A stretch of 3,657 bases of DNA. Origin: a virus. Lineage: Duplodnaviria > Heunggongvirae > Uroviricota > Caudoviricetes. The stretch is from IMG/VR virus record IMGVR_UViG_2534681938_000039; one strand, written 5' to 3'. The notes beneath the pieces are model-generated. The model saw only the letters and a list, made by a program, of their open reading frames with translations. It searched no databases and was not told the DNA's origin. A program made the translations under genes and the position numbers. Of this stretch, positions 1 through 3,657 are shown in pieces (position 1 is the stretch's first letter; the number at the start of each line of letters is the position of its first letter).

Positions 1-249
1 TGCCCCACGCAATTCATCAATTGCACAAACCAGCCGTTCACGTTCGACGTCGTTCATTTCTTCAAAACGCATCGTTGCGTGACGCTGTTTTAACTGCGCA
101 TGGAAGCAAACCGTTAGCCGTTCGCGTTCCATCATCTGATTATAATAATCACATGTATCCTGCCAGCGAGGGACAGCAAGATGCTTGCCAATTATCCGGC
201 GCATAGCTGCTGGCTGTTTTTCAACGAGATTGAGCGTCATCACTGTCAT
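1..249 (-). CDS. Partial early-operon protein, N-terminal 83 aa (MTVMTLNLVEKQPAAMRRIIGKHLAVPRWQDTCDYYNQ...), continuing beyond the window start. Position matches the orf78/B slot downstream of cox in P2-like phages; function not assigned.
   Basis: Hand translation of the minus strand from ATG at 249..247 gives an open frame with no stop down to position 1. A GGAGGG Shine-Dalgarno lies 7 nt upstream (about 257..262). The start overlaps the stop of the upstream small ORF (ATGA). Not in the ORF track because it is truncated by the window edge. Confidence 0.6.
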   Translation of the reverse strand, partial: MTVMTLNLVEKQPAAMRRIIGKHLAVPRWQDTCDYYNQMMERERLTVCFHAQLKQRHATMRFEEMNDVERERLVCAIDELRGA

Positions 250-416
250 TTCCAGACCCTCCGGCTTTTCAGAAAGGTCAGAGCCTTTTTTAACGGACTC
301 TGTTTTTTGGTGCGGATAATGATTCCCTTACGCCCCTTACCGTGGGTGATGGTGAAGTCAATCGCCCTGGGGCTTTCGTTACGCAATAACTGAGCAATAC
401 AACGAGGCTCATTCAT
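246..416 (-). CDS. Small basic hypothetical protein, 56 aa (MNEPRCIAQLLRNESPRAIDFTITHGKGRKGIIIRTKKQSPLKKALTFLKSRRVWK)
   Basis: ATG at 416..414 is preceded by AAGGAG about 6 nt upstream; that SD overlaps the cox stop codon. Its TGA stop (248..246) overlaps the ATG of the next gene (249..247). The ORF track starts it at an upstream GTG (440), which would overlap the cox 3' end; the ATG with SD is the more plausible start. Confidence 0.45.
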   Translation of the reverse strand: MNEPRCIAQLLRNESPRAIDFTITHGKGRKGIIIRTKKQSPLKKALTFLKSRRVWK

Positions 417-426
417 ACGGTTCTCC

Positions 427-702
427 TTAACGTGGTTCACCGAGACCTAACCACATCAACCAGCCGTCACGAATCTCTTTAGGACGGCTTTCATAAGCCA
501 GTTTTAGTCCGTTATTCCATGCCGGAAGGTATACCCAATATTCACCAGCACGCCCCGATACTGACTGAGGGTCAGTAATCTCAATAACTGGTAATTTCCC
601 TTTCTCAATCATGCCCCTTACAGCTCTTGGAGTTTTACCAATGAGTTTTGCAAACTCCTGATAAGGCACGGCATCAGTCACGCTTACAAGCTGTCTATTC
701 AT
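427..702 (-). CDS. cox: Cox-like protein of a P2-family phage (small DNA-binding excisionase / repressor of the lysogenic promoter), 91 aa
   Basis: 91-aa ORF divergent from the repressor gene and first gene of the minus-strand operon. Same length and position as P2 Cox. GGGAG SD upstream of the ATG at 702..700. Assignment rests on gene order and recalled family features, not on a search. Confidence 0.7.
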   Translation of the reverse strand: MNRQLVSVTDAVPYQEFAKLIGKTPRAVRGMIEKGKLPVIEITDPQSVSGRAGEYWVYLPAWNNGLKLAYESRPKEIRDGWLMWLGLGEPR

Positions 703-823
703 CTGCTACGATTCTCCCTTAGTGCTTCTAATGGCTCCTAATGGCTAATTATTGCCTAAAAGGATAACTCCAGAAGCACAACATTTCACACTATCAGCAA
801 GAAATTACGCAATCGGAGTAATT
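703..823. promoter_or_regulatory. Immunity switch region between divergently oriented cox and C; expected to hold the early (Pe) and repressor (Pc) promoters and the C operator
   Basis: 121-bp AT-rich intergenic region between the two start codons, containing a tandem direct repeat. In P2-family phages the two promoters and the C operators lie in this interval. Exact -35/-10 elements could not be assigned confidently by eye. Confidence 0.6.
727..746. repeat. Tandem direct repeat, 10-bp period (TCTAATGGCT / CCTAATGGCT); candidate C-repressor operator half-sites
   Basis: CTAATGGCT occurs at 728..736 and again at 738..746, a perfect 9/9 match. P2-family C repressors are known to recognise direct rather than inverted repeats. 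Confidence 0.5.
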
Positions 824-1123
824 ATGTCAATAGACGTTTCGGAGAAGTTGAAGCTAATCCGTGAATCTGAAAGGTTAAACCGTAAAGAATTCAGTGAATT
901 AACTGGTGTAGCCTACAGCTCACTTTCGAGCTATGAGAGCCGGTCAAAAAACGCTGGAGTTGAAGCCATAATGAAGGTCTTACAACATCCTAGATTTACT
1001 AAATATACTTTGTGGTTCATGACTGATCAGGTAGCTCCAGAAGCCGGGCAAATTGCGCCCGCTCTCGCACACTTTGGGCAAAACGAAACAACGTCGCCCC
1101 ACTCCGGTCAAAAGACTGGTTAA
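824..1123 (+). CDS. C: C-type immunity repressor of a P2-family phage, 99 aa, helix-turn-helix
   Basis: ATG at 824 with GGAG SD (815..818); TAA stop at 1121..1123. HTH-like segment (LNRKEFSELTGVAYSSLSSYESR). Same length and position (immediately upstream of int, same strand) as P2 C. The ORF track's 123-aa version starts at an upstream TTG (752) inside the operator region and is less likely. Confidence 0.8.
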   Translation: MSIDVSEKLKLIRESERLNRKEFSELTGVAYSSLSSYESRSKNAGVEAIMKVLQHPRFTKYTLWFMTDQVAPEAGQIAPALAHFGQNETTSPHSGQKTG

Positions 1124-1162
1124 CAATTTATCGTGAATATATTCATCACAAGTGCCTACTAT

Positions 1163-1185
1163 TGGTGGCTAAATTTCAGCCACCA
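1163..1185. other. Inverted repeat (TGGTGGCT, 7-nt loop, AGCCACCA) in the C-int intergenic region
   Basis: Perfect 8-bp arms at 1163..1170 and 1178..1185. No U-tract follows on either strand, so it does not look like a canonical intrinsic terminator. Confidence 0.3.
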
Positions 1186-1237
1186 CGAAAAAAGCGATTA
1201 GTAGTAGCAAAAAAAGTACCACTCGGAGGGTTTTCTG

Positions 1238-2251
1238 ATGGCAATCAAAAAACTCGATGATGGTCGATATGAAGTGGACATCCGCCCTACTGGACGTAAC
1301 GGAAAACGCATCCGTAGGAAGTTTGATAAGAAAAGCGAAGCTGTCGCTTTCGAAAAATACACGTTGTACAACCACCACAATAAAGAATGGCTATCAAAAC
1401 CAACAGACAAACGACGTCTGTCGGAACTGACACAGATCTGGTGGGATTTAAAGGGTAAACACGAAGAGCATGGGAAATCTAATCTTGGAAAAATTGAAAT
1501 CTTCACAAAAATAACGAATGACCCATGCGCATTTCAAATCACGAAATCCCTTATCAGCCAGTACTGCGCCACCCGAAGAAGTCAGGGTATTAAACCTTCG
1601 AGTATCAATCGTGATTTAACATGTATTAGCGGCATGTTTACAGCCCTGATTGAAGCGGAGTTATTCTTTGGTGAGCATCCTATCAGAGGGACAAAGAGGC
1701 TTAAGGAGGAAAAACCAGAAACAGGCTATCTCACACAGGAAGAAATAGCCTTACTGCTTGCAGCACTTGACGGCGACAATAAAAAGATTGCGATTCTTTG
1801 CCTAAGTACAGGAGCACGTTGGGGAGAAGCAGCTCGTTTGAAAGCAGAAAATATCATCCATAACCGCGTCACGTTTGTTAAAACGAAAACAAACAAACCA
1901 CGCACCGTCCCGATCTCAGAGGCTGTTGCCAAAATGATCGCGGATAACAAACGAGGTTTTTTATTCCCTGATGCTGATTACCCTCGCTTCAGACGAACAA
2001 TGAAAGCAATAAAACCGGATTTGCCAATGGGGCAAGCCACACATGCACTAAGGCACAGCTTTGCCACTCATTTCATGATTAATGGAGGAAGTATTATCAC
2101 GCTACAACGGATACTAGGTCACACGCGGATTGAGCAAACTATGGTTTACGCTCATTTTGCGCCAGAGTACCTTCAGGACGCCATTTCTCTTAATCCGCTA
2201 AGAGGTGGTACTGAGGCCGAGAGTGTCCACACAGTGTCCACAGTAGAGTAA
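1238..2251 (+). CDS. int: Tyrosine site-specific recombinase (phage integrase), P2 Int-like, 337 aa
   Basis: 337-aa ORF with GGAGGG SD 7 nt upstream. The C-terminal half carries the tyrosine-recombinase catalytic signature: R in TGARWGEA, H-x-x-R in HALRHSF, H in GHT and the nucleophile Y in TMVYAHF. It ends 80 bp before a P2-type att core. Confidence 0.95.
   Translation: MAIKKLDDGRYEVDIRPTGRNGKRIRRKFDKKSEAVAFEKYTLYNHHNKEWLSKPTDKRRLSELTQIWWDLKGKHEEHGKSNLGKIEIFTKITNDPCAFQITKSLISQYCATRRSQGIKPSSINRDLTCISGMFTALIEAELFFGEHPIRGTKRLKEEKPETGYLTQEEIALLLAALDGDNKKIAILCLSTGARWGEAARLKAENIIHNRVTFVKTKTNKPRTVPISEAVAKMIADNKRGFLFPDADYPRFRRTMKAIKPDLPMGQATHALRHSFATHFMINGGSIITLQRILGHTRIEQTMVYAHFAPEYLQDAISLNPLRGGTEAESVHTVSTVE
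2222..2242. promoter_or_regulatory. Tandem direct repeat AGTGTCCACA x2 (11-bp period); candidate Int arm-type binding sites overlapping the int 3' end
   Basis: Perfect 10-bp copies at 2222..2231 and 2233..2242. The reverse complement contains TGTGGACA, which I recall as the P2 Int arm-site consensus. Location in the arm next to the att core fits. Confidence 0.55.
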
Positions 2252-2330
2252 CGTTTAAGGGCTTTCAGTGGTAATTTATGCCGCTCAAACCCGCATTGTA
2301 CCGTTGAAAGCCCCTACTGGTGACACCCTA

Positions 2331-2357
2331 AATCTCCCTTACACGGGCTTATTTTTT
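2331..2357. other. P2-type phage attachment site core (27 bp)
   Basis: Reverse complement of 2331..2357 is AAAAAATAAGCCCGTGTAAGGGAGATT, which matches the 27-nt P2 att core as I recall it. It overlaps an imperfect dyad (GGGCTTAT 2345..2352 / ATAAGCCC 2362..2369). Confidence 0.7.
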
Positions 2358-2401
2358 ATGCATAAGCCCTATCCCTGATAACCGTCTTCCATTGACCACA
2401 T

Positions 2402-2443
2402 TGAACCGCCCCGGGTTTCCTGGAGAGTGTTTTATCTGTGAAC
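2402..2443. repeat. Terminal inverted repeat region of the IS element (orfB-proximal end)
   Basis: Begins with TG and reads TGAACCGCCCCGGG..., which resembles the terminal repeat I recall for IS629-type elements. The partner repeat is outside the window, so the inverted-repeat relationship cannot be confirmed here. Confidence 0.65.
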
Positions 2444-3334
2444 TCAGGCTGCCAGATCATCGTTTCCGATGGAAGCATAATAAGCTTTTTCTGCTTCTGC
2501 CGGAGGAGTATGGCCCAGCCTTCCCAGCAATCGTCGATTGTTATACCAGTCCACCCACGTTAGTGTGGCCAGTTCCACTTCTGCACGGTTTTTCCAGCTC
2601 TTACGGTGTATTACCTCCGCTTTGTAAAGACCATTGATGCTCTCAGCCATCGCGTTGTCATACGAGTCGCCTGTACTCCCTGTTGATGCCAGTAATCCGG
2701 CTTCTTTTAGTCGCTCCGTATAGGCCAGTGACACATACTGAGAGCCTTTATCGCTGTGATGGATGGTGCCAGACGGACGACGGGCCCACAACGCCTGCTC
2801 CAGCGCATCCAGCACGAATGTCGTTTCCATAGACGATGAGACCCGCCACCCCACGATGTATCCGGCAAACACATCAATGATAAACGCCACATAGACGAAG
2901 CCCTGCCATGTGCTGACGTAAGTAAAATCAGCCACCCACAGCTGGTCAGGTCGTTCTGCCACGAACTGACGGTTTACGCGGTCGCCTGCGGCAACGGCTT
3001 TCCGGCTGATGGTCGTACGGACCTTTTTACCCCGGAGAACACCGGCAAGTCCCATAACCGCCATGAGACGTGCCACTGTACATCTGGCCACCCTGATTCC
3101 TTCCCGTAACAACTGACGCCAGACTTTACGCACACCGTACACCTGATGATTTTCATCGTATACGCGCTGTATCTCTCTCTTCAGCCAGTCGTCGTGCTGC
3201 GCACGGGCACTGCGTTTATCCGGATGATGTCGCTGTTGCTGACAATGGTAATACGTTGACGGGGCAATATGCAGTTCGCTGCATACCGGTCCGACCCCGT
3301 ACTGCTCACGCAGCTTATCCAGCAGTGGCATCAT
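2444..3334 (-). CDS. IS3-family transposase OrfB (DDE / integrase-core catalytic domain), 296 aa as an independent ORF; normally expressed as an OrfAB fusion
   Basis: Carries the D, D, 35-residue, E triad typical of IS3-family transposases: D in WVADFTYV, D in [10 protein letters not shown] in [18 protein letters not shown] stop at 2444..2446. Confidence 0.95.
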
Positions 3335-3657
3335 TTTTTCCAGAGGCGGTCGAACTCCGCCTTCGCAAAATAAGCGGAAGCCTGGCGAAGGATATCGTTA
3401 CTGCGGCGCAGTTCACGATTTTCACGTTCCAGCTCTTTCAGACGCTGACGTTCAGCGCTGGTGAGCCCACCATCACCGCCCCCGGTATCCCGCTCATGCT
3501 GGCGAACCCAGACACGCAGAGTCTCCGGCGTACAGCCAATCTTTGGGGCAATGGAACAAATTGCCGCCCACTGTGAGTCATATTCATCCTGACTTTCCAG
3601 AACCATACGAATCGCCCGCTGACGGACTTCGGGGGAAAAACGAGTATTTTTAGTCAT
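3331..3657 (-). CDS. IS3-family transposase OrfA (HTH and leucine-zipper-like N-terminal part), 108 aa
   Basis: Protein [26 protein letters not shown]... with a heptad-like [20 protein letters not shown] segment. Its TGA stop (3333..3331) overlaps the OrfB ATG (3334..3332). The start codon occupies 3657..3655, the window edge. Confidence 0.95.

Follow-up and report, generated by a model that had tools for sequence, protein, structure and literature searches.

The locus described here raises the question of whether a phage attachment core is followed by more phage DNA or by the DNA of a host. In a stretch of 3,657 nucleotides from a tailed phage record (the window, at its full length), an initial annotation had identified the reverse complement of a segment downstream of the integrase gene as the P2 attachment core, and had left it open whether the DNA beyond this core was phage, as in an intact attP, or host, as at the end of an integrated prophage. 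The integrase of P2 (Int) is a heterobivalent tyrosine recombinase which, with IHF, recombines attP with attB within 27 bp of identity. P2 excision depends on Int, Cox and IHF, which act on attL and attR.

A whole-window search located a single copy of the att core AAAAAATAAGCCCGTGTAAGGGAGATT, at 2331..2357 on the minus strand and with no mismatches; no second match to the 27-mer with three or fewer mismatches was present in the window outside these positions. The record for phage P2 (AF063097.1) gives 24356..24382 two labels, attP and Int core-binding site, and comparison of the sequences showed that the letters are the same 27-mer. The core named in the initial annotation is therefore, letter for letter, the attP core annotated in P2. 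Its placement 80 bp downstream of int also held, as the int stop codon ends at 2251 and the spacer to the core measures 79 nt. That the 27-mer is a chance resemblance without attachment function can be dismissed: none of 200 dinucleotide-preserving shuffles matched it, even with three mismatches allowed, the surrounding DNA and Int are identical to those of P2, and homology breaks at both edges of the core.

The features of the window up to and including the core are as follows.

1..249, minus strand: 3' part of a homologue of P2 gene B (Phage_RepB), truncated by the window start; placed by the CDS position in a 99.9% identical O157:H7 locus and by a match to PF26815 (Pfam) on this gene in related loci
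246..416, minus strand: small ORF of 56 aa, the equivalent of P2 orf78; supported by a CDS annotated in the O157:H7 relative and by the name 'Orf78 protein' given in ON470606.1
427..702, minus strand: cox, 91 aa, excision directionality factor and Pc repressor; ORF list and Pfam Phage_Cox (143.6 bits)
824..1123, plus strand: C immunity repressor, 99 aa; CDS in relatives, Pfam HTH_3, and 64/99 residues identical to P2 C by BLASTP
1238..2251, plus strand: int, tyrosine integrase, 337 aa; 337/337 residues identical to P2 Int by BLASTP, Pfam Int_N and Phage_integrase
2217..2243, unstranded: P' arm; the P2 feature 'Int, P' arm' (24470..24496) mapped through a 100% identical stretch
2241..2314, unstranded: predicted Cox-binding region of attP/attL; the P2 feature 'protein_bind Cox' (24399..24472) mapped through a 100% identical stretch
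2331..2357, minus strand: 27-bp P2 att core (O); exact match, AF063097.1 annotation, and homology breakpoints at both edges

The order of cox, C and int and their sizes (91, 99 and 337 aa), by which, together with the core, the module had been placed in the P2 family, agree with the ORF list and with the CDS of relatives. The placement itself is borne out by an Int that is 100% identical to P2 Int and by 100% identity between window 2200..2358 and P2 24355..24513. The lysogeny module is of the Peduovirus type, with cox divergent from C and int, and encodes a Phage_Cox protein, an HTH repressor and a P2-type tyrosine integrase; positions 1..2401 share 96% nucleotide identity with P2 over 85% of that span. 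The protein-binding DNA on the P' side is all identical to that of P2. The P' arm holds two direct repeats of AGTGTCCACA (2222..2231 and 2233..2242, 11-bp spacing). The consensus of P2-type arm sites is tgTGGaCa, which the reverse complement of these repeats fits (PMC3448106). Between the P' arm and the core lies the predicted Cox-binding region, the DNA of which is 100% identical to the P2 footprint.

The module is nevertheless a mosaic: Int matches P2 at all 337 positions, whereas the adjoining C repressor shares just 65% identity with its P2 counterpart and diverges in the N-terminal two-thirds of the protein. Given this degree of identity between the repressors, immunity should differ from that of P2. 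Mosaicism of this kind is well known among P2-like phages. In comparison with P2 (AF063097.1), the window has the same 27-bp core, P' arm repeats, Cox-binding region, Int and cox-C-int-att order; it differs in the repressor and in the P side of attP, which is replaced here by E. coli DNA.

This replacement was recognized from the point at which identity with P2 stops, which is the edge of the core. In P2, attP continues beyond the core into an IHF site, the P arm, a terminator and ogr, according to the AF063097.1 annotation. When the two were aligned, the P2 IHF site, P arm and ogr were absent from the window beyond the core, and other sequence was found instead:

2358..2401, unstranded: bacterial arm (B) from the E. 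coli chromosome, on that side of the cyaR-yegR attachment locus which faces yegR; O157:H7 has identical sequence ahead of yegR, and K-12 shares this flank

Many E. coli O157:H7 chromosomes align with window 1..2404 at 99.9% identity (the final 3 bases of the alignment, up to 2404, are a chance extension into the insertion sequence that follows), and the next genes in these chromosomes are yegR, yegS and the gat operon. The alignment of the DNA beyond the core against P2 attP and E. coli loci, which had been proposed as a check, thus returned a host-like yegR-side arm and no continuation into ogr/D.

An empty attachment site was rebuilt from the outer flanks of the prophage in O157:H7 strain JEONG-1266 by joining the yegQ/cyaR side, the core and the yegR side. 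The rebuilt site is found uninterrupted and at 100% identity in many O157:H7 genomes, with the host arm directly after cyaR and the core. It is covered to at least 80% in 4566 of 5426 complete E. coli genomes, a count that may include sites with a short insert, such as the 629-bp remnant in K-12, because pieces up to ~700 bp apart were joined. A 150-bp probe spanning the P' side, the core and the host arm (2252..2401) gave a full match in 747 of the 5426 genomes, and unoccupied genomes matched it only from position 80, which is window 2331 and the first base of the core. Phage homology therefore ends at 2358, empty-site homology begins at 2331 and the two overlap in the core, which is the signature of a site-specific recombination junction. 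The earlier marking of the core as the crossover point appears sound in the light of these breakpoints. The core is predicted to be the region of identity inside which Int exchanges strands; the exact cleavage positions within it are not deducible because both junction copies are identical.

As judged from these alignments, the choice between attP and a prophage junction is settled: the DNA past 2357 is to be read as host DNA and the site as the attL (B-O-P') of an integrated prophage. The junction is attL by the B-O-P' convention because the side that is retained carries the P' arm and the Cox-binding region. The paper describing the structure of P2 Cox also puts Cox action at attL (PMC3936717). 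It is very probable that 2331..2357 is the core of the attL of a P2-family prophage that has the Int/att specificity of P2 and a different repressor, and that is integrated at the 3' end of cyaR. A longer core, extending to 2365, was considered because P2_2H4 and similar phages match for 8 bp further, and was rejected, as only 6 of these 8 bases agree after the core.

Several phage-database records contain the region, and one of them (ON470606.1) matches the window through 2401, which speaks for an intact attP in a free, circular or packaged P2-like phage genome. However, ON470606.1 is a 'partial genome' in which yegR, yegS and the gat repressor, all of them host genes, are included, and is thus a prophage excerpt. 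The genomes of virions (P2, P2_2H4 and others) leave the window right after the core and run into the IHF site, the P arm and ogr. The flank seen in the window (ATGCATAAGCCCTATCCC... after the core) is chromosomal in thousands of genomes. An intact attP is, on balance, extremely improbable.

Two records that are filed as phages carry host DNA, namely vB_EcoM-720R8 (ON470606.1) and 'Phage TP' (AY639599.1), and entries of this kind can lead to a host flank being taken for phage sequence. 'Phage TP' has ogr at a distance of 292 bp from a partial core and the host flank, a spacing that is also found in the K-12 element PR-X, and the record appears to be a K-12-type ogr-D' remnant. Its 'putative protease' is presumably yegQ, judged from the gene arrangement.

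The boundary between core and host arm is spanned by a perfect 8-bp inverted repeat (GGGCTTAT / ATAAGCCC) at 2345..2352 and 2362..2369, which is present only in attB and attL and is absent from attP. A terminator scan around the core found no canonical terminator over it on either strand, and the sole match lay inside the end of the insertion sequence.

The integration locus was identified from the far end of the related prophage. In JEONG-1266 (NZ_CP014314.1), two exact copies of the core (AATCTCCCTTACACGGGCTTATTTTTT) lie 31,960 bp apart, and the second adjoins ogr. The sequence that ends in this second copy is the CyaR sRNA (Rfam RF00112, 100.7 bits). The core provides the last two bases of the 5' half of the stem of the CyaR terminator, together with the loop, the 3' half of the stem and the U-tail. 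The 3' end of cyaR is thus the target of P2 integration, which restores it with sequence carried by the phage. The copy of the core in the window is a displaced, orphan 3' fragment of cyaR and not a functional cyaR, because it amounts to no more than the final 27 nt of the sRNA gene; Rfam, scanned permissively over the window (E up to 10), gave no match to CyaR.

The locus lies between yegQ and yegR, the usual site of P2 in E. coli. In K-12 MG1655, the cryptic prophage PR-X (ogrK-yegZ) is annotated as starting inside cyaR. On the yegR side of PR-X, the core is reduced to 18 to 19 bp (TACACGGGCTTATTTTTT), which are fused to a truncated D gene and followed by the host arm of the window. PR-X therefore shares the chromosomal locus and the yegR-side host arm with the window and keeps the junction of cyaR, core, P arm and ogr, but int, C and cox are missing from it, along with most of the phage. 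The cyaR locus is taken here to be locI, the classical preferred site of P2, and Barreiro and Haggard-Ljungquist reportedly described in 1992 that locI of K-12 is occupied by a remnant. Searches of the literature (yegQ with P2-like; cyaR with ogrK) found nothing on an overlap between the att core and cyaR. The E. coli W genome paper gives 'cyaR RNA' as the site with P2-type elements in W, K-12 (ogr-D') and B (PMC3032704).

The closest relative of the window is the O157:H7 prophage at the yegR-yegQ/cyaR locus (JEONG-1266), which is 99.9% identical over 1..2401 and has the same junction and host arm. Over these positions the only differences are A175G, in gene B, and one A fewer after 1208; the missing A belongs to an A-run that precedes the int start, in the space between C and int. 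In contrast with the window, the host arm of the O157:H7 relatives runs on to yegR, and none of them has the insertion sequence IS629 at 2401|2402.

Two further features of the relatives were observed. In the JEONG-1266 locus (1..2301), an 'ABC-three component system' gene pair and an AAA ATPase directly follow replication gene A. The position after gene A is presumably the variable cargo region of P2 (old/tin), and the gene pair and ATPase are probably anti-phage defence cargo. Of ten loci with an identical Int, two (at 5014..5449) have yegR ~170 bp more distant from int than the remaining eight do, a spacing that implies a putative extra insertion of ~170 bp in the host arm of these two.

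In the window, the host arm gives way to an IS629/IS1203 element, the start of which, at 2402, had been overlooked in the initial annotation. Its features are as follows.

2402..3657, minus strand: IS629/IS1203 (IS3 family); 100% identical to many annotated IS1203 copies, NCBIfam transpos_IS3, right end TGAACCGCCCCGGG... at 2402
2444..3334, minus strand: IS629 orfB, 296 aa, with an rve integrase core domain; ORF list and domain matches
3260..3376, minus strand: ALIL pseudoknot, the stimulator of programmed -1 frameshifting of the IS3 family; Rfam RF01497, 121.5 bits, E = 2.6e-32
3331..3657, minus strand: IS629 orfA, 108 aa, HTH_Tnp_1; ORF list and domain matches

The ALIL pseudoknot sits at the overlap of orfA and orfB, and the window ends exactly at the ATG of orfA, 54 bp short of the left end of the element. 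Alignment with three other copies showed that the terminus (TGAACCGCC...) begins at 2402. As these three copies are flanked by 3-bp target duplications (CTT, GTA and CAG), CAT (2399..2401) is predicted to be the duplication here. The host DNA between the core and IS629 amounts to only 44 bp (2358..2401), and in the reference arrangement the stop codon of yegR is ~115 bp upstream of the insertion point. In nucleotide identity (100%), in the possession of orfA, orfB and the ALIL pseudoknot, and in its terminal TGAACCGCCCCGGG, the element is the same as known IS629/IS1203; it differs in its position 44 bp from a P2 att core, which was not seen elsewhere in the collections searched.

The host|IS629 junction was absent from the 5426 complete E. 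coli genomes, GTDB species representatives, JGI metagenomes and IMG/VR. Among the exact-protein matches listed for Int, none of the 10 loci had IS629 beside it, and all 10 had yegR next to int. Since the junction occurs in no collection that was searched, it is taken to be an insertion specific to the strain, with an assembly artefact as the less likely alternative.

Were the join between host arm and IS629 at 2401|2402 an assembly chimera, its absence from every other genome and contig searched would be accounted for, and the IS part, at 100% identity to many copies, is the type of repeat that misleads assemblers. The break, however, falls exactly at the first nucleotide of the terminal inverted repeat of the element, as transposition gives. 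IS629 is also highly active and variably placed in O157:H7, and the best-matching O157:H7 genomes each hold 17 to 28 places that match it. A chimera is consequently considered very unlikely, and a strain-specific insertion is the preferred origin of the junction.

It is also conceivable that the attL is real but orphan, either because the prophage is a defective remnant or because IS629 caused an adjacent deletion or inversion, so that the core no longer serves excision. A flank other than yegR would then be found beyond the IS, or attR would be missing, as opposed to CAT followed by CGATAGAATCTCCC and yegR. A simple insertion of IS629 would give GGGGCGGTTCA, then CAT, then CGATAGAATCTCCCTTCATAGC and yegR, from 54 bp beyond the window end. 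An orphan attL would fit with a host|IS junction that is unique among the collections searched, and the window ends within the IS, so the CAT duplication and the continuing flank are out of view; remnants also occur at the locus, as in the case of K-12 PR-X with its truncated core. Against this, the part from gene B to the core differs from the O157:H7 prophage by no more than one substitution and one 1-bp indel, all ORFs are intact, and the IS junction is clean and terminal, as is typical of simple transposition. The O157:H7 prophage itself carries the core in two exact copies as well as the P2 late genes, although its tail-fibre gene is annotated as truncated. Taken together, these observations make an orphan attL unlikely, and the attL of an integrated P2-family prophage, with IS629 inserted into its host arm, remains the favored reading.

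The host arm bears some resemblance to the P arm of P2. The two have in common an exact 15-mer, CATTGACCACATCGA (window 2390..2401, continuing in the JEONG-1266 locus at 8391..8405), which contains a candidate arm-type Int site, TGTGGTCA, on the other strand. Neither 2000 shuffles nor 1338 control windows taken from the prophage yielded a match of equal score. Looser similarity between the host arm and the P arm extends further in the alignment, around a 16-bp gap. In addition, the first 10 bases of the core (AATCTCCCTT) recur ~50 bp beyond the real core in relatives (JEONG-1266 locus 8409..8418), and this second partial core lies 7 bp past the point at which IS629 interrupts the window. These motifs suggest that the 'empty' site may be layered with fossils of earlier P2-like integrations.

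Whether the bacterial arm as such is the fossil of an older P2-like P arm is doubtful; if Int were to bind its arm-type site, that site could modulate integration or excision. IS629 splits the 15-mer CATTGACCACATCGA after CATTGACCACAT, and the IS629 copy would be a natural knockout of the 15-mer if the host arm motif CCATTGACCACATCGATAG were bound by Int. A pattern scan of species representatives for the core with the arm-like motif returned only Escherichia/Shigella entries, which are too few to date the flank. The probability that the P-arm-like host flank is functionally relevant is low. IS629 lies outside every known Int, Cox and IHF site, so that it would be expected to have no effect on recombination at the core.

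In the history proposed for the locus, Int bound to arm-type and core-type sites would, with IHF, have recombined attP (P-O-P') and attB (B-O-B') inside the 27 bp. One product of this reaction would be P'-O joined to the yegR-side host arm, i.e. the junction in the window. The other would be cyaR-O-P joined to ogr, at the other end of the prophage ~32 kb away and outside the window, where the duplicated core would rebuild the CyaR terminator and keep the sRNA gene intact. Excision would need Int and Cox on the P' arm and the cox-boxes (2217..2314), as well as IHF at attR, and would be expected to yield attP (the P' side, 2252..2357, followed by ACGCGTAATACAATG...) and attB (cyaR followed by ATGCATAAGCCC...). 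The host arm would have received IS629/IS1203 by transposition, 44 bp away from the core (2401|2402), either after integration or in the prior empty site.

The arrangement follows the same logic as the attL of lambda and its Int/Xis/IHF system, in which a heterobivalent tyrosine integrase also acts on arm-type and core-type sites. Lambda Xis and P2 Cox are both small winged-helix directionality factors that bind between arm and core at the junction, as is generally known and as described for Cox, which doubles as a repressor in the lytic switch (PMC3936717). The sequences and the chromosomal target of lambda are, in contrast, unrelated.

The junction is an instance of P2 biology that is already known, and only the position of IS629 is new. 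It leaves what is understood of P2 site-specific recombination unchallenged, and its value lies mainly in annotation. The prophage boundary can now be fixed to the base, with phage DNA ending within 2331..2357, host DNA at 2358..2401 and IS629 from 2402, and the integration locus is identified as the 3' end of cyaR, the usual site of P2. The element pairs the P2 integration module with an immunity repressor that is not that of P2, and the IS629 copy 44 bp from the core would be a strain-specific marker that could aid the typing of O157-like strains.
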